Assembly (NCBI GenBank): GCA_037131105.1
Contig: JBAXRQ010000001.1
Span: 458,263-522,262 of the forward strand
Source: a bacterium
GTDB lineage: Bacteria; Patescibacteriota; UBA1384; CAILIB01
Length of the DNA stretch: 64,000 nucleotides
Reading direction: 5' to 3'
The translations under genes and the position numbers were made by a program. Positions 2,451 through 60,450 of this stretch are shown here, piece after piece; position 1 is the first letter of the stretch; each line of letters opens with the position of its first letter. The notes under the pieces are model-generated. The model was not told where the DNA came from and ran no database searches. It saw only the letters and a list, made by a program, of their open reading frames with translations.

Positions 2451-3221
2451 ATGCTGCTTCCCGTTACCACCCTTCTGGCTAGGTCTCGTCGCGCCAAGCG
2501 CCTAGCACCCTATATCCAGGTCTCGACTCTTGAAGTCCTGGAAGGGGCTCTCCTTGCAGCGCGTCAGGAAAAACGGGATGTCATCATTGAGCTGAACCTG
2601 GAAAAAGCCACTCTTGACCATGTGGTCTTTGTGGCCACGGCTACTTCGCTCTGTGCCAGTCATCCGTCGGCGGTTGGATTGGTCCTGGCGGTACGGGCGC
2701 ATGCATCGGAGATTGAGATGGTACTGCGTCTAGGGGTACCGTCTATTCGCCCGGTATTTCCCAAAGACACGTCGCTGCCAGAACGGACCGAGTTCATCGC
2801 TTGGTTTACCAGTCAGGCCAGCCAGTACGGCATAGAGGTCGGCGCCAGCTTCTCAAGGGTGATGGGTGGAGATGAAGTACGTCACCTCTGCGACTCATCT
2901 AGTGCCTCATTTGTCGTTATGCCGGTTCGAGAAGAACAGAGAAGTCGCCGTACCTTGGTGCCGGCTGCCCTCAAGGACCTCGGGAGAGGGGCTACCGTGC
3001 CTGTGGTGGCCGATGAGGAGATGCTTACCAGTCTCCACCTGACGTCGCTACGCAAGGCAGGAATCTGCGGTCTTTTTCTGGGTGAGACCCTTGAGAAGTC
3101 CTATACTGCAGGGGTACGGGCTGGACTACGTGACCGTATGGTCACTGACCCTTCCAGCTATCAGAGAAAGGGAATGCTTGCCGTCAAGAACACCGTTATC
3201 CATTACCTACAAGCCGCTTAA
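2451..3221 (+). CDS. Class II (FbaA/GatY-like) aldolase-fold protein with degenerate metal-binding residues; possible pseudo-enzyme.
   Basis: 256 aa. From memory it aligns along its length with class II fructose/tagatose-bisphosphate aldolases, for example KAGICGLFLGETL against KLGICKINVATEL. The HLDHG, GxAHG and LHGxSG histidine positions read VLAVRAH, VMPVREEQ and VVADEEM. Confidence 0.45.
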   Translation: MLLPVTTLLARSRRAKRLAPYIQVSTLEVLEGALLAARQEKRDVIIELNLEKATLDHVVFVATATSLCASHPSAVGLVLAVRAHASEIEMVLRLGVPSIRPVFPKDTSLPERTEFIAWFTSQASQYGIEVGASFSRVMGGDEVRHLCDSSSASFVVMPVREEQRSRRTLVPAALKDLGRGATVPVVADEEMLTSLHLTSLRKAGICGLFLGETLEKSYTAGVRAGLRDRMVTDPSSYQRKGMLAVKNTVIHYLQAA

Positions 3222-3230
3222 CCGCACAGT

Positions 3231-4244
3231 ATGTTTGACATGATATCTATCGGCGACACCATGCAGGACGTTTTCCTGGAGATGGACCCCGCCAATGCGC
3301 ACCTGCACACCTTCCGCAAGGAGTCTGAGGAACTTTGTTTTACCTTTGCCGATAAGATCCCGGTTAAGGCCAAGCATGACCTTATCGGGGGTAACTCGGC
3401 CAATGCTGCCGTGGCTTTCGCCCGGCTTGGCTTCAAGACCGGCTTTTATACCCATGTGGGTGATGACGAGCAGGGAAAGCGACTTATTGCCGACCTGAAG
3501 GGCAATGATGTGCATGACGACTATATCGTCGTAGATGAGGGTAAGGAGTCGAATTACAACACGGTGATAAACCTTGAGGCCGAGCGCACTATCCTTATCT
3601 ACCATGTCCACCGTCACTTCGTACTACCAAAGCTTGAAGCTGCCAAGTGGATCTACCTTTCTTCGATGGGGGAGGGATTTGAGAAGATTTTCCCTGATCT
3701 TATTAAGTATGTCGACGAGCACAAGGTGAACCTTTGCTACCAGCCGGGGACCTTCCAGCTCAAATACGGCGCTGAGAAGACCAAGGCACTTCTTGAGAAG
3801 ACTAAGATCTTCTTCGTCAACAAGGAGGAGGCCGAGCTCTATACTGGTATTCCTAAGACCGATAACTTCCGTAAGCTACTTGACGGTATTTTGAAAATGG
3901 GTCCGGAGATCGTGGTGATCACTGACGGACGCATGGGCGCTTACGTCTCTGACGGCCGGGAATATCTCTGGCTGGGTATCATTGAAAAGGCTCCACGCGT
4001 TGAGGCTACGGGGTGTGGTGACAGCTTCTCATCTGCTTTTGCCGCGGCTATGGCTTCTGGGGAGACTCTGGCCGAAGCTCTACGTTGGGGCCAGTGCGAG
4101 GCAAGCTCGGTGATCGGGAAGATTGGTCCTCAGCCGGGTCTCCTGTTCAATAAGCAGATCAAGCACCTCCTGGATGAATATCCCCAGCTCCAGGCAGTCT
4201 CCCTGGACGAGAACGGCCGCCCGATCAATGGGCATAACGTCTAG
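3231..4244 (+). CDS. PfkB-family carbohydrate or nucleoside kinase (ribokinase-like).
   Basis: 337 aa. C-terminal ATGCGDSFSSAFAAAMASG...LRWGQCEASSVIGKIG matches the PfkB anion-hole/GD motif. N-terminal substrate-lid region is present. Confidence 0.7.
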   Translation: MFDMISIGDTMQDVFLEMDPANAHLHTFRKESEELCFTFADKIPVKAKHDLIGGNSANAAVAFARLGFKTGFYTHVGDDEQGKRLIADLKGNDVHDDYIVVDEGKESNYNTVINLEAERTILIYHVHRHFVLPKLEAAKWIYLSSMGEGFEKIFPDLIKYVDEHKVNLCYQPGTFQLKYGAEKTKALLEKTKIFFVNKEEAELYTGIPKTDNFRKLLDGILKMGPEIVVITDGRMGAYVSDGREYLWLGIIEKAPRVEATGCGDSFSSAFAAAMASGETLAEALRWGQCEASSVIGKIGPQPGLLFNKQIKHLLDEYPQLQAVSLDENGRPINGHNV

Positions 4245-4249
4245 AGTCT

Positions 4250-5218
4250 ATGGCGCGGCCACGTATAGTAGTCACCAGGGCGATACCTGAGAGCGGCATC
4301 AAGCTGCTTGAACAAGACTTTGATGTGCAGGTGTATAGGGGGGAGGGAGTGATGGATAAGGCTCAGCTGTGTGAGTTTGTGAAAGGAGCTGAGGTTATCG
4401 TTAGTCTACTTACCGATCCTATCGATGGCGAGGTACTGGACGCGGCAGGTCCTCAGCTAAAGGCGGTAGCTCAGTATACGGTAGGGTATGACAATATTGA
4501 CCTGGAAGCAGCTAAGGCGCGATCTGTGATAGTGACTCATACTGCCGGCACCTTATCGGCCACAGCGGTGGCTGAACTGGCACTGGGCGGATTGCTGGCA
4601 GTTGCACGTCATACCGTGCAGGCAGATGCGTATATGCGGTCTGGTGCTTATAAGTATTGGGACCCGAGTATTTTTCTTGGTCAGCAGCTGACGGGAAAGA
4701 CGGTAGGTATCATTGGTACTGGTCAGATAGGCTCTTTGTTCGCCACCATGTGCCACCATGTCTTCAGGGCGAAGATACTGTATACCGATATGGTCTCGAA
4801 TCTCTCACTAGAAAAATCCTTGGGAGCGATGAAGGTGTCCAAAGAAGAGTTACTTGCTCGTGCTGATGTAGTATCGCTTCATGTGCCACTGCTTGCTAGC
4901 ACTCGTCATCTTATTGGTGAAGGGGAGCTGCAGCAGATGAAGAAAACAGCCATTTTGATCAATACATCCAGAGGACCAGTAGTAGATGAGGGCGCCCTAG
5001 TGCGCGCATTGCAGAACCGCGAGATATTCGGTGCCTGCTTAGACGTGTACGAATCCGAGCCTGACCCTGCCGAAGGACTTGCGGCTTTGGACAATGTGGT
5101 GCTAACTCCTCATATTGCCTCTGCCACTGAGACTACTCGTACGGCCATGGCAGAGTGTGTAGTTCGTAATATCAAGGCGGTTCTTGCTGGTGAAACCCCT
5201 CCCGACCTTGTCAGGTAA
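4250..5218 (+). CDS. D-isomer-specific 2-hydroxyacid dehydrogenase (glyoxylate/hydroxypyruvate reductase or glycerate dehydrogenase-like).
   Basis: 322 aa. Has the GIIGTGQIGSLFA Rossmann motif, LHVPL...TRHLIGEGEL, and a catalytic R-E-H arrangement (INTSRG...; TPHIAS). Confidence 0.8.
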   Translation: MARPRIVVTRAIPESGIKLLEQDFDVQVYRGEGVMDKAQLCEFVKGAEVIVSLLTDPIDGEVLDAAGPQLKAVAQYTVGYDNIDLEAAKARSVIVTHTAGTLSATAVAELALGGLLAVARHTVQADAYMRSGAYKYWDPSIFLGQQLTGKTVGIIGTGQIGSLFATMCHHVFRAKILYTDMVSNLSLEKSLGAMKVSKEELLARADVVSLHVPLLASTRHLIGEGELQQMKKTAILINTSRGPVVDEGALVRALQNREIFGACLDVYESEPDPAEGLAALDNVVLTPHIASATETTRTAMAECVVRNIKAVLAGETPPDLVR

Positions 5219-5259: not shown

Positions 5260-5316
5260 CCAATCTGTTGTCAATCCGCCAATCTGTTGACAGGTGGGGC
5301 ATAGATTGGCAATAAT
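5260..5316 (+). promoter_or_regulatory. Promoter with repeated operator-like motifs upstream of the small ORF at 5369. Two direct repeats of CCAATCTGTTG(T/A)CA at 5260-5273 and 5279-5292, an inverted partial copy AGATTGG at 5303-5309, -35 TTGACA at 5287-5292, and an A/T-rich -10 at 5310-5316.
   Basis: Repeats and the TTGACA box read directly. The second repeat contains the -35 hexamer. RBS AGGAG at 5359-5363 lies before the ATG at 5369. Confidence 0.45.
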
Positions 5317-5368
5317 CAAGCCACTAAACCAGTAACCGTCCGCCATCTGGCGGAAGAACAGGAGCATA

Positions 5369-5572
5369 ATGGCATTCGCCTACAAGAACTCCAAGGATCA
5401 GGAATACTTCCTGCACTCCAAGGAAGTTACCCTGAAGGGTGGTCGCAAGCAGGTAATTTATTACTTCGCTCGCGCCATCAACGCTGAGTTCGCTCTTGAC
5501 GCTGTTCCCGCTGACCGTATGGTCTCCGAGAACCCTCGCACCGGTTTGCCTCTTCTGAAGAAGAAGGCCTAG
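5369..5572 (+). CDS. Small, basic, conserved-looking protein of unknown function (67 aa), likely highly expressed.
   Basis: AGGAG RBS 5 nt upstream. Own promoter with repeats. Followed by two consecutive hairpins, the second with a U-tract. No family recognised from memory. Confidence 0.55.
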   Translation: MAFAYKNSKDQEYFLHSKEVTLKGGRKQVIYYFARAINAEFALDAVPADRMVSENPRTGLPLLKKKA

Positions 5573-5575
5573 TAC

Positions 5576-5619
5576 TTCTCTCTGCGAGAGAAAAAGAGAG
5601 TCTTCGGACTCTCTTTTTC
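5576..5619 (+). terminator. Tandem stem-loops forming a rho-independent terminator.
   Basis: First hairpin TTCTCTCtgcGAGAGAA at 5576-5592. Second hairpin AGAGAGTCttcgGACTCTCT at 5595-5614, followed by TTTTT. Confidence 0.7.
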
Positions 5620-5677
5620 GTGGTATCACCCTGGTAGTGGGTTTTGGGATGCCTGCGCACTCTGCTACACTGGTGAC

Positions 5678-7141
5678 ATGAAACGCTCAGAGCTCTTCTT
5701 TTCGGTGTTGCTGATCCCGGTAGACTATCTGGCCCTATTGGTGGCCTTTCTTCTTTCCTATGTACTGCGGGACAGCTTCTCGCCAGTTTCTCCTACAAAT
5801 CTTGCCGGAGTGGCTGACCGACTTCAGTACAATCCTGATACGGCCCTGGTCATCTCTCAGTCTCAATATCTGCACTACCTGTATTTTATTATTCCAGGGA
5901 TGCTGGTGGCATTTGCCTTGGTCGGTCTTTACGGTATCAGAGTCAATTACTCCTGGTTTACCCGGGCCTTGCGCATATTGATAGGGGTTTCCGTAGGGGA
6001 GTGCTTTATTCTGTTGTTGTTTCTGTTGAGGAAGGACTTCTTTCTGCCTCGCTCAACGGTGCTGTATAGCTGGGCGCTGGGAACACTATTTGTCATAGCT
6101 GCTAGGCTGATAGTACTTGGAGCACAACGCTTTCTCTATAGGTTCAATATAGGCGCGGTACGCGTGGCCGTAGTGGGTGACGATAAGGCTGCCAAGCGGG
6201 TAGGGGAGCAGTTGGGGAAGGGAAAGGCCGCCTCCTATCGGTTGGTACGTCAGTTTGCCAGCCTGCCTGTCGCCCAACTTGCCCGACACGTCACCCGAGA
6301 GGAGATGGATCAGCTGGTAGTCGCAAGCGGCAGCTACTCAAACGATGATCTGATCGAGCTTCGCAGCATTTGTCTTGAAGCCCATGTTGCCTTTAGCTTT
6401 GTGCCTTCATTGCTTTCGGCATTGCAGAGCAGTAGTTTTACTGTGCAAAATATTGCCGACGTCCCCATGATTGAGGTAAGTCCCACGCCTCTTGAGGGAT
6501 GGGGGAGAGTACTCAAGCGTCTTTCCGACCTCATCGGTGGTACGCTGCTGCTGATTTTATTCTCACCGCTCATGCTGCTTGTGGCTATTTCCATTAAGCT
6601 ACTTTCACCGGGTCCCCTGATATACCGTCACAGGCGCCTCGGTCGTAACGGTACGGAGATTAAGGTCTGGAAGTTCCGTAGTATGTATTGGAAATACTGC
6701 ACGGGGGTAGGTACCGACGGCGACCGGAGTTTTGAAGAGCTGCTGGCTACTGACCCCAAGCTGGCTATTGAGTGGGAGCAGAGCCATAAGCTGAAGAACG
6801 ATCCTCGTATAAGCATCCCTGGAAGATTCCTGCGACGTACCAGCCTTGATGAGCTCCCCCAGCTGTTCAATGTCCTGTCGGGCTCGCTCAGCTTGGTCGG
6901 TCCCCGGCCAATCGTGGAAGAGGAGATCCGTAAGTACGGCAAGTACGCAGGCCTGCTGTTCTCGGTCCGACCGGGTATGACCGGTCTTTGGCAGATTAGC
7001 GGACGTAATGACACTACCTATATCGAGCGAGTCGGGCTGGATGTTACATATATTGAGCATTGGAACCTGCTTCGCGATATAGGGATTATGCTTCGCACTA
7101 TTTTGGTGCTGGTGGGACCGCGCAAGGACGGGGCTTATTAA
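5678..7141 (+). CDS. Undecaprenyl-phosphate sugar phosphotransferase (WbaP/WcaJ-type bacterial sugar transferase) with N-terminal TM segments.
   Basis: 487 aa. C-terminal domain has PGMTGLWQISGRND and LSLVGPRP, hallmark motifs of the bacterial sugar-transferase family. Hydrophobic N-terminus. Confidence 0.85.
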   Translation: MKRSELFFSVLLIPVDYLALLVAFLLSYVLRDSFSPVSPTNLAGVADRLQYNPDTALVISQSQYLHYLYFIIPGMLVAFALVGLYGIRVNYSWFTRALRILIGVSVGECFILLLFLLRKDFFLPRSTVLYSWALGTLFVIAARLIVLGAQRFLYRFNIGAVRVAVVGDDKAAKRVGEQLGKGKAASYRLVRQFASLPVAQLARHVTREEMDQLVVASGSYSNDDLIELRSICLEAHVAFSFVPSLLSALQSSSFTVQNIADVPMIEVSPTPLEGWGRVLKRLSDLIGGTLLLILFSPLMLLVAISIKLLSPGPLIYRHRRLGRNGTEIKVWKFRSMYWKYCTGVGTDGDRSFEELLATDPKLAIEWEQSHKLKNDPRISIPGRFLRRTSLDELPQLFNVLSGSLSLVGPRPIVEEEIRKYGKYAGLLFSVRPGMTGLWQISGRNDTTYIERVGLDVTYIEHWNLLRDIGIMLRTILVLVGPRKDGAY

Positions 7142-7159
7142 TTCTTTACACCACACCCT

Positions 7160-8230
7160 ATGAAAACTATTGCTTTGGTACAGGACTGGTTGACGGGATT
7201 TGCCGGGGGTGAGCAGGTGCTGCTTGCCCTTCATGAGATGTATCCGGACGCGCCGATCTACACCAGTCTCTATGCCCCTGAGAAGGTGCCCCAGTTTGCC
7301 AATGCTACGGTGATTCCGTCCTATCTTCAGAAGGTCCCAGGACTACTCACCAGGCATCAGACGGCCATTCCTCTTATGCCGCTTGCCTTTGAGTCTTTTG
7401 ACCTTAAGGGCTTTGACGTGGTGATTTCAGTCGGCGGCGGACTATCTAAGGGGGTGATCACCCAGCCTGACCAGACCCATATCAGCTACTGCCATACCCC
7501 TATGCGGTACCTCTGGCACATCGGAGGTGACTCCCGCGCCTCAGGCAGCTGGTTGAAGTCGCAGGCCGCCCACAAGCTGAGGATTTGGGACGTTGTCTCG
7601 GCCAGCCGGGTTGACCGATTCCTGGCTAACTCCCAGACCGTAGCTGATCGCATTGCCAAGATCTATCGGCAGGACGCCACCGTGGTATATCCGCCGGTCA
7701 ATACGTCGCGCTTTCATGTGGCCACAGACAAGCCAGGGGATTATTTCCTGAGTGTGGGCCGGTTGATCAGTTACAAGAGGGTGGACCTGGCGGTTGAGGC
7801 ATGTATCAAGACCAAACAGCCTCTTAAGATCGCCGGTACCGGACCTGAATCCGATAGCCTGAAAGCCATGGCTAAGAACGCCCCGTGGATAGAGTTCCTC
7901 GGACGTGTACCCGATGCCGAACTTGAAGGCCTCTATCAAGGAGCCCGGGCCTTCATTTTTCCGGCTGAAGAAGACTTCGGCATAGTGCCGGTAGAGGCCA
8001 TGAGCGTCGGCCGGCCGGTGATCGCCTTCGGCAAGGGAGGGGCCACTGAAAGTGTGGTGGAAGGAGTCTCGGGTACGTTCTTTGACAAGCAGGAGGGCGA
8101 CAGCCTTGGCGAGAAGTTGACTGCGTTCAAGGATGCTGACTGGGATCCCGCTGCCATCCGCCAACAGGCAGAGCGTTTTGACGTAGAACTATTTAAGAAA
8201 ACCATGAAGGAAATCGTGGATGCTGCCTAA
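7160..8230 (+). CDS. Glycosyltransferase, family 4 (GT-B, group 1).
   Basis: 356 aa. EDFGIVPVEAMSVGRPVIA matches the E-x7-E GT4 motif region. Confidence 0.8.
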   Translation: MKTIALVQDWLTGFAGGEQVLLALHEMYPDAPIYTSLYAPEKVPQFANATVIPSYLQKVPGLLTRHQTAIPLMPLAFESFDLKGFDVVISVGGGLSKGVITQPDQTHISYCHTPMRYLWHIGGDSRASGSWLKSQAAHKLRIWDVVSASRVDRFLANSQTVADRIAKIYRQDATVVYPPVNTSRFHVATDKPGDYFLSVGRLISYKRVDLAVEACIKTKQPLKIAGTGPESDSLKAMAKNAPWIEFLGRVPDAELEGLYQGARAFIFPAEEDFGIVPVEAMSVGRPVIAFGKGGATESVVEGVSGTFFDKQEGDSLGEKLTAFKDADWDPAAIRQQAERFDVELFKKTMKEIVDAA

Positions 8231-57749: not shown

Positions 57750-59432
57750 GTGTTCGATGTGCGAAAAAGTGAGAAGATCGTGAATATAGTTGGATTGTAT
57801 GCCGTACTGGCAGGAGTAGTGCTGGGGTCAATTCCTTTCGGAATCATCTTTACTAAGATGCGGGGAGGGACCGACCTGCACAAGAAGGGCTCGGGTAACA
57901 TCGGGGCCACTAACGCCTTTAGATCAGATCCACTGGCCGGGGTACTTACCCTACTTGGGGACTGTCTGAAAGGCTTTGTGCCCTGCTATGTCCTGCATCG
58001 CCAAGGTCTTGATCAGTACGCCTACCTGGCAGCAGCTGGGATAGTCTTCGGAGCCAACTGGTCAATATTTCTGCTCTGCAAGAAAGGTGGGAAAGGCATC
58101 GCCGCCCTTATGGGGGTCGGCCTCGCTCTTCAGCCACTTCTTGCACTGGTAAGCTTCGGGGTGTTTTTATTCCTGGTGCGTATCAGTAAGTATGTTTCAG
58201 TCGGCTCCATCGGTGCTATGGTTGTGGTGACCTGCTGGGGCATATTCCTTCTAGGGGGACACCATAACCCGCAGGGATGGCTCTTACTAGTCGCAGGACC
58301 CCTGGCCATCTGGAAGCATCGTGAGAACATCGACAGACTAACCCACGGTTGTGAGAAGAAGTTTTCCCTTAAGAAGCAGCCGGCGCCGGCTGGACATTGC
58401 CACAGGGTGGCCGGATTCATTATCCATGCCACCACTGATGATCCGGATAAGCTAAAGGAGAAGGCACTGGAGCTGGTCAACGGGAAGCGAAAGGCAGAAT
58501 GGTTAGTCAGGCGCATGCCCGGCTGGCTGATACGATCCTTGTTACCCTTCATTCCGCCCCGGGTAACTGGAAACACCCAGTCGTGGGTAACCATTGCAGA
58601 CGGCAGCAGCATTGAGATGATCTTCGTGTCAGTATATATGACTCCGAAGCAGATGATGCGTTGGCAGGGGCTGGCGGTAAGGAAGATAGTCAAGGCTGCC
58701 TTCATGCTTGAACGCAGGGGTGCCAGCCATATCGGACTGGGAGCCTATACCTCCATTGTTGGTAAGAGGTGGGATATGGGCGCCGGCGACGCGGTGCTGG
58801 TGCGGTTCAGAGAGTTCGGTGGTACGGCGATGATCACCACGGGCAATGCCCTGACGGTCTTTACCGGCATCCATGCCCTAAAGGTTCTTGCTGCTCAGCA
58901 AAGAAAGGACCTTAAGGACTGCAGGGTGGCGTTCGTGGGTCACCGTGGCAACATTGGCACAGTGGGAACCAGGATACTGTGCACCATGGTGCCTGAGGAG
59001 AATCTCATCCTGATAGGAAGAGAGGATTCACAGGAGAGACTGCTCGAAGCCGATTTCATCATCGTCGCCACCAGCAGTGAAGTGCCTCTCGACGAACGCT
59101 ACGTAAAGAAGGGAGCCTGCATCGTCGACCTTTCACGTCCTCGGCAGACCGAGAAGATGGAAGGGTGCACGGTGGTGGAGGGTGGCGTCATTACGGGTGC
59201 AGAAGGTACCTATATCGCCATTCCCCATAACCTGGATACAAATGAAATGCATGCCTGTACGGCTGAGACAGCGCTTGAGTGTGTGATGGGAAGCAAGGAA
59301 AGCCACGTGGGACCGATCGACCCGAACTACGCCATGAGGATAGGTCGGGCCATGGGCACACAGGGTTTGAGTATCAGTCGTCTTCGAGGCGCCGATGACG
59401 GGGCCTACCAAGGAGGTGAGAACAGTGGATAG
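57750..59432 (+). CDS. plsY: Fusion protein: glycerol-3-phosphate acyltransferase PlsY (about residues 1-205) joined to a C-terminal domain of about 350 aa resembling the cyanobacterial acyl-ACP reductase (AAR) family.
   Basis: PlsY motifs GSGNIGATN, DCLKG, KGGKGIAA and HRENIDRL. Compared from memory with S. elongatus AAR, the C-terminal domain matches along its length: GFIIHATT vs GLIGHLTS; LGAYTSIV vs LGGFTSII; ITTGNALT vs FTTGNTHT; Rossmann VAFVGHRGNIGT vs VAVVGATGDIGS; EADFIIVATS vs EADFIVWVAS; EMHACTAETALECVMG vs QMFACFAEAMLLEFEG. GTG start. The true start may be the GTG at 57780. Confidence 0.7.
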   Translation: MFDVRKSEKIVNIVGLYAVLAGVVLGSIPFGIIFTKMRGGTDLHKKGSGNIGATNAFRSDPLAGVLTLLGDCLKGFVPCYVLHRQGLDQYAYLAAAGIVFGANWSIFLLCKKGGKGIAALMGVGLALQPLLALVSFGVFLFLVRISKYVSVGSIGAMVVVTCWGIFLLGGHHNPQGWLLLVAGPLAIWKHRENIDRLTHGCEKKFSLKKQPAPAGHCHRVAGFIIHATTDDPDKLKEKALELVNGKRKAEWLVRRMPGWLIRSLLPFIPPRVTGNTQSWVTIADGSSIEMIFVSVYMTPKQMMRWQGLAVRKIVKAAFMLERRGASHIGLGAYTSIVGKRWDMGAGDAVLVRFREFGGTAMITTGNALTVFTGIHALKVLAAQQRKDLKDCRVAFVGHRGNIGTVGTRILCTMVPEENLILIGREDSQERLLEADFIIVATSSEVPLDERYVKKGACIVDLSRPRQTEKMEGCTVVEGGVITGAEGTYIAIPHNLDTNEMHACTAETALECVMGSKESHVGPIDPNYAMRIGRAMGTQGLSISRLRGADDGAYQGGENSG

Positions 59433-60450
59433 ACGTGATAGAAGGGTCCTAGTCATAGGAAAGAACTTTGGGGGAGCTATCGCTACTCTTCTCGTGAAGA
59501 ATGGCGTCGATGTCACCCTGCCCTATAGACCAGGGGGAAAGCTTCGTCCTGTCGACGATGTGCTGGCGCGAAACCTGCATACGCCGACCCTTGAAGACTT
59601 TTTTGCTACTGAGCACCGTCGGTTTGACTTCTGTGTCATTGCAACGCCGATGGCAGATCTAGTCGGTGTCGCAGAGAAGCTCAAGAAGACGAATGTGGAA
59701 ATAGGGACGTTTGTCCTGGTCCAAAAGGCTATGGACGAGGCGATGCGCGGTCCTTATGCCGTGGCGAGCGAGGTACTACCTGGTGCTGAGATCATACTCT
59801 GTACGGGCGCCGCCTTTGCTGGTGACCTGGCAAACGGCTGCTATACCCGCATGCTACTGACGCATAGGGAGGGCCACTGCAAGCCTGCAGAGGATTTTGC
59901 ACGCCTATTTGCCGGAGGCCATATCCAATGGCACTACTATGACAACTTCGAGGTGGTGACCGTTTGCAATACAGTGAGGACGGTAACATCTTATCTGCTT
60001 GGGGCGGTCACCCAGTACTTAAGAGAAGTTGGTCTGGCCAATGAGACTACCTTGGCAAACGTCGTAGCCTCAATACAGGGCGAGGGCGTCGAGATAGTTC
60101 ATGCCTTGCTTCCTAAGCTTGATCCGACCTTCTTTCGTTCAAAGATCGGTTGGATTATGCTTGCAGACATGGGTTTGTGTCAGAGCTCTACTAGCCGGAA
60201 CCGTGCAGCGGGTGAAGATGACGTGATGAGACACTTCCATGGGAGTCGTGCCGGTAGGGACCTGGGTGTCGTGGAGGCCCTCGCAAATACGGGCGTGGTA
60301 GCTCAAGGCCTGGAAAGGCGTCCCGGTGACTGGATGGAACAGTTTCCCTATACAGCATCCGGCTATTTGTTCCGGATAGGTACTTATAGCATCGAGGATG
60401 CTGCCAGGAAGATCTTCAAAAGGATTCAAGGTGATGACTATGGGTCATGA
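59395..60450 (+). CDS. Highly divergent NAD(P)H-dependent glycerol-3-phosphate dehydrogenase (GpsA) homologue.
   Basis: Compared from memory with E. coli GpsA, similarity runs along the length: VLVIGKNFGGAIATLLVKNG vs VIGAGSYGTALAITLARNG; DPTFF...ADMGLCQSSTSRNR vs [26 protein letters not shown]. The GxGxxG motif is altered to GKNFGG, and the GGAVKNV catalytic Lys region reads CNTVRTV. The probable start is the GTG at 59425, preceded by AAGGAGG, which overlaps the upstream gene by 8 nt. Confidence 0.55.
   Translation: MTGPTKEVRTVDRRDRRVLVIGKNFGGAIATLLVKNGVDVTLPYRPGGKLRPVDDVLARNLHTPTLEDFFATEHRRFDFCVIATPMADLVGVAEKLKKTNVEIGTFVLVQKAMDEAMRGPYAVASEVLPGAEIILCTGAAFAGDLANGCYTRMLLTHREGHCKPAEDFARLFAGGHIQWHYYDNFEVVTVCNTVRTVTSYLLGAVTQYLREVGLANETTLANVVASIQGEGVEIVHALLPKLDPTFFRSKIGWIMLADMGLCQSSTSRNRAAGEDDVMRHFHGSRAGRDLGVVEALANTGVVAQGLERRPGDWMEQFPYTASGYLFRIGTYSIEDAARKIFKRIQGDDYGS

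Follow-up and report, generated by a model that had tools for sequence, protein, structure and literature searches.

Gene content of the locus and the homology of X

The window analyzed here, a stretch of 64,000 nucleotides of contig JBAXRQ010000001.1 (assembly GCA_037131105.1) from a bacterium of the Patescibacteriota, encodes at 2451–3221 on the forward strand (+) a protein of 256 amino acids, hereafter X, which is a degenerate homologue of the class II aldolases with a triosephosphate isomerase (TIM) barrel. X is part of an operon of sugar-phosphate metabolism, in a position that is taken by a live aldolase in some related lineages, and has lost the metal ligands, catalytic residues, and phosphate-binding residues of its parent family.

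The local transcription unit starts with tktN (606–1478, +), which encodes the N-terminal, thiamine pyrophosphate (TPP)-binding subunit of transketolase (PF00456, E = 1.9e-60), and continues with tktC (1471–2448, +) for the C-terminal subunit, comprising the pyrimidine-binding and C-terminal domains (PF02779 and PF02780). X is followed by a PfkB-family sugar or sugar-phosphate kinase (3231–4244, +; PF00294, E = 2.9e-37), and the last gene of the unit encodes a D-2-hydroxyacid dehydrogenase resembling glyoxylate/hydroxypyruvate reductases (4250–5218, +; PF02826 and PF00389), which reaches 334 bits on the NCBIfam model PRK13243, under the cut-off of 455. Only 2 nt lie between the stop codon of tktC and the ATG of X, and 9 nt between the stop codon of X and the start of the PfkB gene. 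A terminator-like site is located upstream of tktN at 267–281, and none was found inside the unit from tktN to the dehydrogenase. The GG, NxxE, and GxGD motifs of the PfkB kinase are intact, with G53, G54, N55, N197, E200, G261, G263, and D264 among the invariant columns, and the nearest solved structures are an IolC-like kinase, ribokinase, YdjH, and sulfofructose kinase.

An earlier reading of this DNA from sequence only had placed X between a split transketolase and a PfkB kinase plus a 2-hydroxyacid dehydrogenase, and Pfam searches recovered the same order of open reading frames (ORFs). X is directly upstream of the PfkB gene in all 13 non-redundant loci that carry it (L002, L003, L006, L008–L016, and L072), and tktC precedes X wherever the contig reaches that far. 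Further upstream, where covered, these loci encode rpiB-rpe-gap-tktN, and in one relative glucose-6-phosphate dehydrogenase and 6-phosphogluconate dehydrogenase as well. The context is a non-oxidative pentose-phosphate/glycolytic operon, rpiB-rpe-gap-tktN-tktC-X-pfkB, with or without the 2-hydroxyacid dehydrogenase. The sequence-only reading had suggested a pentose or nucleoside-sugar salvage operon; nothing in the gene content points specifically to nucleoside salvage. The slot after the PfkB kinase is filled by an Ldh/Mdh-family dehydrogenase in the most divergent X locus (L014, 8375–9301, +) and is empty in L003, and the last gene of the unit is thus exchangeable.

X is deposited as ‘MAG: hypothetical protein WCO52_02555 [bacterium]’ (NCBI; MAG, metagenome-assembled genome), and ‘hypothetical protein’ is the sole type of database name seen across its family. 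Taken alone, the sequence matches PF01116 with E = 5e-4 over residues 6–79 at the N-terminus only, and the score of 20.1 bits is under the Pfam gathering score of 25.5. The NCBIfam model PRK09195 (tagatose-bisphosphate aldolase) matches residues 195–252 at the C-terminus (E = 5.5e-4). No match was obtained by BLASTP against Escherichia coli GatY or by phmmer with the single sequence against the PDB, and AF2 prediction of X without an alignment gave a predicted local distance difference test score (pLDDT) of 42. The evidence from the single sequence is therefore marginal, and the homology becomes clear only once the family alignment is used.

Relatives of X were gathered by an exhaustive phmmer search over 1.84 billion representatives, which yielded a family of 57 clusters, all of approximately 250 amino acids, collinear from end to end, and with an intact ORF. 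The exhaustive search was needed for this, as a word-indexed homologue search returned X itself only and its profile version returned mainly canonical aldolases. The profile of the 57-member alignment matches the Thermus aquaticus class II fructose-bisphosphate aldolase (FBA) in the PDB at E = 2.2e-26, with further matches to KbaY/SqiA, the FBAs of Bacillus methanolicus and Helicobacter pylori, YdjI, and AgaY. Conversely, PF01116 matches 49 of the 57 members at E ≤ 0.1, the best at E = 2.2e-14. The hhalign comparison of the family with GatY gave a probability of 98.5%, aligning residues 3–253 with residues 4–275, and AF2 with the family alignment predicted a (beta/alpha)8 barrel with a pLDDT of 96.1 and a predicted template modeling score (pTM) of 0.92. 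In a Foldseek search of the PDB with this model, the top 50 matches were all class II aldolases with template modeling (TM) scores of 0.78–0.90, those to FBA, AgaY, YdjI, and SqiA being 0.85–0.90. X is genuinely, if very distantly, homologous to the class II fructose/tagatose-bisphosphate aldolases, as the sequence-only reading had claimed, and the pair of segments offered there as an example, KAGICGLFLGETL against KLGICKINVATEL, is aligned in exactly that way by hhalign. A variant from another assembly, P0076, belongs to the same 90% cluster as X and has 263 amino acids; it is identical to X through residue 243 and fully divergent thereafter, a frameshift pattern that probably reflects an assembly error.

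Loss of the active site and retention of the gene

The residues of 57 family members, 17 canonical aldolases, and GatY were compared using MAFFT and hhalign, with canonical positions given in GatY/SqiA numbering. In place of the H-L-D-H motif with Asp82 and the zinc ligand His83, X has VLAV at residues 78–81 (2682–2693, +), and both methods align V78-L79-A80-V81 with H80-L81-D82-H83. The G-T-x-H-G loop is replaced by PVREEQRSR at residues 158–166 (2922–2948, +), which is three residues shorter and has Q163 at the position of His180, and P-L-V-L-H-G-x-S-G is replaced by PVVADEEM at residues 184–191 (3000–3023, +), with D188 at the position of His208. Across the family, histidine occurs in 0 of 57 members in the His83 column (V81 in X), in 3 of 57 in the His180 column, where another 14 have a gap, and in 1 of 57 in the His208 column. 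The sequence-only reading had located the loss of the three zinc-binding histidines at VLAVRAH, VMPVREEQ, and VVADEEM, which are precisely the segments aligned by hhalign, and the substitutions are common to all 57 family representatives.

The loss extends past the histidines to most of the residues that are invariant in canonical enzymes. The columns of Asp82 (A80 in X; Asp in 7 of 57 members), Glu132 (G131; Glu in none), Glu134 (S133; Glu in 13), Asn24 (Q23; Asn in 4), Asp104 (V102; Asp in 4), and Asn230 (F209; Asn in none) are all substituted. Among the phosphate-binding elements, Gly209 is deleted in X and corresponds to a gap in 54 of 57 members, while Ser211 (E190; Ser in 3 members), Thr233 (E212; Thr in 3), and Lys228 (G207; Lys in none and Gly in 48) are replaced; Gly212 is replaced in X as well. 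The mobile catalytic lid is replaced by a short beta5-alpha loop at residues 133–143 (2847–2879, +), and the beta5 loop has a median length of 10 residues in the family (range 2–16) compared to 21–30 residues in canonical enzymes. In class II aldolases this loop is one of two flexible lids (PMC10665668).

A rescue of the metal site by shifted histidines was ruled out, as in none of the 57 members do all three ligand positions have a histidine at most four alignment columns away. A minority of members (P0051, P0052, P0003, P0032, P0040, and P0043) carry histidine-rich stretches (e.g., YHHTNHH or YHHTHTH) after strand beta3, 3–8 residues past the former His83 position; these are not conserved family-wide and are unaccompanied by histidine at the other two ligand positions.

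Thus, the fold and the collinearity of X are those of a class II aldolase, whereas the metal ligands, the catalytic residues with the lid, and the phosphate-binding residues are not. With the metal site, the general acid/base, the phosphate-binding residues, and the lid lost, X should, judging from its residues, no longer be able to act as a metal-dependent aldolase. X combines clear homology and the loss of essential residues with retention under purifying selection, as is characteristic of pseudoenzymes, and the earlier suggestion of a pseudo-enzyme is thereby broadened from the three histidines to nearly the entire active site.

The rate of evolution of X differs markedly from that of its neighbors. 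X is 26–40% identical among genomes whose neighboring proteins are 57–82% identical; between the window genome, L003, and L006, X is 32–34% identical, and between L003 and L008 it is 40% identical with a PfkB kinase that is 89% identical. Compared to relatives, the window's TktN is 78%, its TktC 73–76%, and its PfkB kinase (in most relatives) 67–89% identical. X is nevertheless under purifying selection. Between L010 and L011, the X genes have 39.8 synonymous and 7.2 non-synonymous differences, which gives a dN/dS (ratio of non-synonymous to synonymous substitution rates) of 0.05–0.06, an estimate from one unsaturated pair, the other pairs being saturated or identical. In the same pair, the dN of X (0.013) equals that of XseA and is above that of every catalytic neighbor, from 1.5-fold (RpiB) to more than 10-fold (TktC). 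The dN/dS is low but the dN is above that of the catalytic neighbors, and X is therefore constrained, although much less than the live enzymes around it.

These data bear on the explanation that X is a functionless relic, a slowly decaying aldolase gene that is still transcribed within its operon. A relic would be consistent with the loss of all catalytic residues, with a rate of evolution among the highest in the locus, and with the absence of any database name other than ‘hypothetical protein’. On the other hand, the excess of synonymous over non-synonymous changes (40 versus 7), the collinear ORF that has stayed intact in 57 clusters across a divergence at which PfkB identity falls to 41%, the strong conservation of a C-terminal block, and a family alignment signal sufficient for a pLDDT of 96 all argue against decay, and we consider a relic most improbable.

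Live aldolases in related operons and the probable origin of X

Scanning metagenomes with the aligned PfkB kinases provided 80 further loci. Lineages with PfkB kinases 37–46% identical carry the operon rpiB-rpe-tktN-tktC-pfkB-FBA, in which gap or the 2-hydroxyacid dehydrogenase may also be present, and their aldolases score 200–350 bits on the canonical hidden Markov model (HMM). All 38 of the operon-linked aldolases compared keep Asn24, Asp82, His83, Asp104, Glu134, His180, His208, and Ser211 as far as these positions are covered by the fragments. Counted as non-redundant loci, a canonical FBA lies within a few kb of PfkB in 39 (directly adjacent in 23), X is directly upstream of PfkB in 13, and neither is found near PfkB in 18 loci with flanks of at least 1 kb on both sides; another 21 show no aldolase near PfkB but have flanks that are too short for a judgment. 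None of these loci contains both X and a canonical FBA. In three loci (L051, L069, and L049) the order is tktC-FBA-PfkB or FBA-PfkB, so that the live enzyme occupies a slot identical to that of X. The related contigs with rpiB-rpe-tktN-tktC-pfkB-fba, with or without gap, fall within L019–L094 (e.g., L019, L028, L040, L047, L070, and L085) and are apparently from the Candidate Phyla Radiation (CPR).

In a rough neighbor-joining tree of PfkB, the X-bearing loci group together with L014 as an outlier, and their nearest neighbors are L051 and L033/35/36. The aldolase of the L033 type is 77% identical to P0099, ‘tagatose-bisphosphate aldolase [Candidatus Berkelbacteria bacterium CG03...]’, which is encoded in the context of a PfkB kinase, a 2-hydroxyacid dehydrogenase, an ORF without an assigned family, the FBA, and glyceraldehyde-3-phosphate dehydrogenase. 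The only X locus found in a sub-alignment scan of GTDB species genomes is on one short contig labeled uncultured Candidatus Berkelbacteria. Based on this label, the PfkB tree, and P0099, the X family is apparently related to Candidatus Berkelbacteria. We conclude from these sequence comparisons that the ancestor of X was probably the aldolase of this same operon in a lineage related to Berkelbacteria, likely with a single origin.

Two further arrangements were seen near the aldolase slot. In L023, PfkB is directly followed by a fragment of a class I FbaB/DhnA-like aldolase (3829–4362, +; E = 1.4e-17 against E. coli FbaB), which looks like a non-orthologous replacement in the slot of the class II enzyme. 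L095 (9360–10016, +) and L096 (9371–9997, +), which are Candidatus Berkelbacteria CG03-like, encode a 208–218-amino-acid ORF between the 2-hydroxyacid dehydrogenase and the canonical aldolase that has no Pfam match and does not match the X-family HMM.

No canonical aldolase was found in the 64-kb window, in the 7.5 kb upstream, or in the flanks of the 13 X loci (up to 6–10 kb). When the operon-linked canonical aldolases were used as queries, none with a WCO52 tag was among the 120 matches listed of 7991. Neither the X-clade loci nor 830 kb of related loci yielded a transaldolase-like ORF when searched for transaldolase and class I aldolases with single E. coli queries, by which divergent forms could be missed.

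The retained helices and possible roles of X

The best-conserved part of the family is a block at residues 214–245 of X (LEKSYTAGVRAGLRDRMVTDPSSYQRKGMLAV; 3090–3185, +), which is aligned with helices alpha8 and alpha8a of the class II aldolases and has the consensus L-x-E-A-[YF]-T-A-G-[LVI]-R-T-G-L-R-N-R-S...P..Y...AV. In the AF2 model, it forms helix alpha8, the next loop, and the start of the C-terminal helix. Near-invariant positions of the family are R14, P184, A220, G221, R223, L226, and A244, and conservation within the block reaches 100% for G221, 96% for A220 and R223, 95% for L226 and A244, 98% for Y/F218, and 91% for Y/F237. Residues E216, G221, T224, R227, R229, S230, and Y237 are conserved specifically in the X family. 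In SqiA, alpha8 and alpha8a constitute the dimerization domain, with Phe239, Val243, Tyr254, Leu256, and Leu260 at its core (PMC10665668). F239 of GatY is aligned with Y218 of X (Tyr or Phe in 98% of members), and L243 of GatY with V222 (Leu, Val, or Ile in 96%). We infer from this alignment that X retains the helices mediating dimerization in its parent family.

The DPR motif of class II aldolases contains an arginine that, in the E. coli and Giardia enzymes, extends into the active site of the partner subunit. This arginine is kept in only 4 of the 57 X-family members, which tells against one use of the retained helices, namely that X forms a heterodimer, as its non-catalytic subunit, with a catalytic class II aldolase whose gene lies elsewhere in the genome. 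X, bound via alpha8/alpha8a, would then modulate how stable or how specific the active subunit is, by analogy with GatZ/KbaZ and GatY/KbaY. The conservation of the dimerization helices above all other parts of X fits this explanation, as does the reliance of class II aldolases on reciprocal contacts between subunits (PMC10665668), and GatZ is named ‘putative tagatose-1,6-bisphosphate aldolase 2 chaperone’ in the E. coli RefSeq entry. Moreover, the KEGG orthologue of FBA is present in 10 of 12 groundwater MAGs in a column that we read as Berkelbacteria (PMC12577380 Table S6). These MAGs, however, may represent the lineage keeping the canonical operon aldolase. The Berkelbacteria with that aldolase (P0099 and L095) form a lineage separate from the X clade, and the 10 of 12 may therefore not apply to the latter. 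X also fills the slot of the canonical aldolase and is not added beside one, and the searches of the window, its upstream 7.5 kb, and the X loci yielded no canonical partner. A heterodimer of this type is possible but unlikely.

A second explanation draws on charge. X has an isoelectric point (pI) of 9.2 and the family a median of 8.5, compared to 5.0–6.5 for soluble neighbors in the same genome, and five arginine positions (R11, R14, R223, R227, and R229) are conserved at 84–96%. X could accordingly bind an anionic non-protein ligand (nucleic acid, sugar bisphosphate, or phospholipid) and possibly serve as a sensor or regulator, for which these arginines would form the contact surface. However, canonical CPR aldolases, some of which are themselves basic, often have basic residues at positions 11, 14, and 223 as well, the former sugar-phosphate pocket is not conserved, and no known nucleic-acid-binding motif was found in X. 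We give this explanation little credence. The argument from a charge shift between a basic X and acidic aldolases was downgraded because operon-linked canonical CPR aldolases span pI 4.9–10.2, and an arginine patch specific to X was partly rejected, as positions 11, 14, and 223 are ancestrally basic and R227 and R229 alone are family-specific.

A third explanation retains catalysis, with X as an enzyme whose rebuilt, metal-independent site carries out an aldolase- or transaldolase-type step or another sugar-phosphate reaction. It would account for the invariable placement of X between transketolase and a kinase that is intact, for the purifying selection on X, and for the fact that, L023 excepted, the searches of the X-clade loci and the 830 kb of related loci detected no transaldolase-like or other aldolase ORF. 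The barrel is predicted with high confidence, and the family has conserved polar residues of its own (E216, T219, T224, R227, R229, S230, and Y237). In the model, however, these residues appear to lie in the second half of alpha8 and the next loop, away from the catalytic face, and all positions at the C-terminal (catalytic) face of the barrel are variable. Conservation of a Lys, His, Asp, Glu, or Cys in at least 70% of members is confined to the alpha8 block, the phosphate-binding elements are gone, and the dN of X exceeds that of its catalytic neighbors. A rebuilt enzyme is therefore improbable in our view.

The explanation we favor, and consider somewhat probable, is that X is a catalytically dead descendant of the operon aldolase that has been kept as a non-catalytic structural or regulatory subunit through contacts with other proteins. 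Its ancestor would have been a class II fructose/sedoheptulose-bisphosphate aldolase of the CPR operon rpiB-rpe-tktN-tktC-pfkB-fba, which would have lost the metal site, the acid/base and phosphate residues, and the lid in one Berkelbacteria-related lineage. The barrel fold and the alpha8/alpha8a block would then have been preserved by purifying selection in a gene that is not decaying, and X would work through protein–protein contacts and not through catalysis. The most likely partner would be the PfkB kinase, followed by a catalytic aldolase encoded elsewhere in the genome. PfkB is favored because it is always co-located with X at a gap of 9 nt in the window, because it keeps the GG, NxxE, and GxGD motifs, and because it is paired with a live aldolase in sister lineages (adjacent in 23 of 39 loci); a dependence of the kinase on its aldolase neighbor could have outlasted the aldolase activity. 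The binding role of X is suggested by what is retained, and the partner, whether PfkB or another protein, by gene position.

Several points weigh against this explanation. A217, F/Y218, A220, L222, R223, L226, and P234 are also common in canonical CPR aldolases, and the alpha8 block might be conserved only to stabilize the fold, not to preserve an interface. The seven residues conserved specifically in X are without an assigned role, the basic pI does not discriminate X from live aldolases, and the estimate of selection comes from a single pair of loci. Furthermore, if the genomes had no other aldolase or transaldolase, the intact PfkB kinase and transketolase would lead into a metabolic dead end, and residual or new catalysis by X would be favored. 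In that case, X, perhaps only when complexed with PfkB, might perform or enable a carbon–carbon cleavage of fructose 1,6-bisphosphate or sedoheptulose 1,7-bisphosphate (SBP) that involves neither a metal nor a Schiff-base lysine, with a site that would be built from E216, T219, T224, R227, R229, S230, and Y237. We regard this as hardly credible, although it would amount to a third aldolase mechanism, built on a class II scaffold.

The comparison with known systems places X closest to the class II aldolases themselves (PF01116: FbaA, GatY/KbaY/AgaY, YdjI, and SqiA; PDB 1RV8, 1GVF, 6OFU, and 8Q57), with which it has in common the (beta/alpha)8 barrel, the alpha8/alpha8a block A-[FY]-T-A-x-[LVI]-R...P..Y, and the genomic pairing with a PfkB-type kinase and transketolase. 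X is approximately 30 residues shorter because the lid loop is deleted. YdjH/YdjI and YihV/SqiA of Enterobacteria likewise pair a PfkB-family kinase with a class II aldolase, and both types are among the solved structures nearest to X and its kinase, but their aldolases are active metalloenzymes on other substrates and are unlinked to transketolase. GatZ, KbaZ, and AgaZ of E. coli are needed, or presumed to be needed, for the catalytic tagatose-bisphosphate aldolase machinery. X shares with them only the concept of a non-catalytic protein encoded beside genes of a ketose-bisphosphate pathway; GatZ has 420 amino acids and is encoded next to a live GatY, whereas X has no live aldolase in the fetched flanks or the 64-kb window. 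Kinship with GatZ was rejected, given an hhalign probability of 0.1% between the family profile and the E. coli protein. A full-text literature search for a class II fructose-bisphosphate aldolase described as a ‘pseudoenzyme’ found no paper, and we rate the X family as an undescribed, lineage-specific family of dead aldolases.

In cellulolytic clostridia, phosphofructokinase and FBP aldolase take the place of transaldolase in a sedoheptulose-1,7-bisphosphate route (PMC7029132). The operon described here has the same gene set, consisting of transketolase, Rpe, RpiB, a sugar-phosphate kinase, and, in sister lineages, a class II aldolase, although its kinase is of the PfkB type. By this resemblance, the logic of the operon would call for an aldolase, and since the aldolase member is dead in the X clade, the route cannot run on the X-clade operon alone. 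The operon rpiB-rpe-tkt-pfkB-fba is widespread in the CPR, with no transaldolase detected nearby. Phosphofructokinase has been reported as largely missing in the CPR (PMC7304191), and the PfkB kinase of the operon may be this missing phosphofructokinase or a sedoheptulose-7-phosphate kinase that feeds an SBP-type pentose phosphate pathway.

Metabolic reconstructions of the CPR/Patescibacteria score pathways by HMM matches. As X is below the Pfam threshold and deposited as ‘hypothetical’, the clade would be scored as lacking the operon aldolase, while a more lenient search could count X as a working enzyme. A conserved dead enzyme in the aldolase slot raises the question of how transketolase and the PfkB kinase are linked to the triose phosphates in these reduced genomes. 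X is a bacterial case in which an enzyme's own gene, in its own operon slot, has apparently turned non-catalytic, with live and dead forms in close lineages, and the comparison of X with its live relatives is a useful system for non-catalytic roles of the class II aldolase scaffold.

Other features were observed around the operon. In L002, four ORFs of 160–234 amino acids without a Pfam match lie between gap and tktN (5306–7995), the last of which extends into the window at 1–445 on the minus strand. This insertion was found in L002 only, and gap is directly followed by tktN in L003, L006, L009, and L014. Downstream of the operon, the window encodes a basic ORF of 67 amino acids (MAFAYKNSKDQEYFLHSKEVTLKGGRKQ...; 5369–5572, +) without a Pfam match, which is present in every X-clade locus reaching that far and, at 60–82% identity, is better conserved than X. 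Just upstream of this ORF, at 5287–5316, is a promoter-like site close to the consensus (TTGACA, 18 nt, AATAAT). At the far end of the window, an ORF of 560 amino acids (57750–59432, +) has a PlsY (glycerol-3-phosphate acyltransferase) domain in its first 200 residues only, followed by a long unassigned C-terminal part, and overlaps the start of a 351-amino-acid ORF (59395–60450, +) with a weak, sub-threshold match to GpsA.

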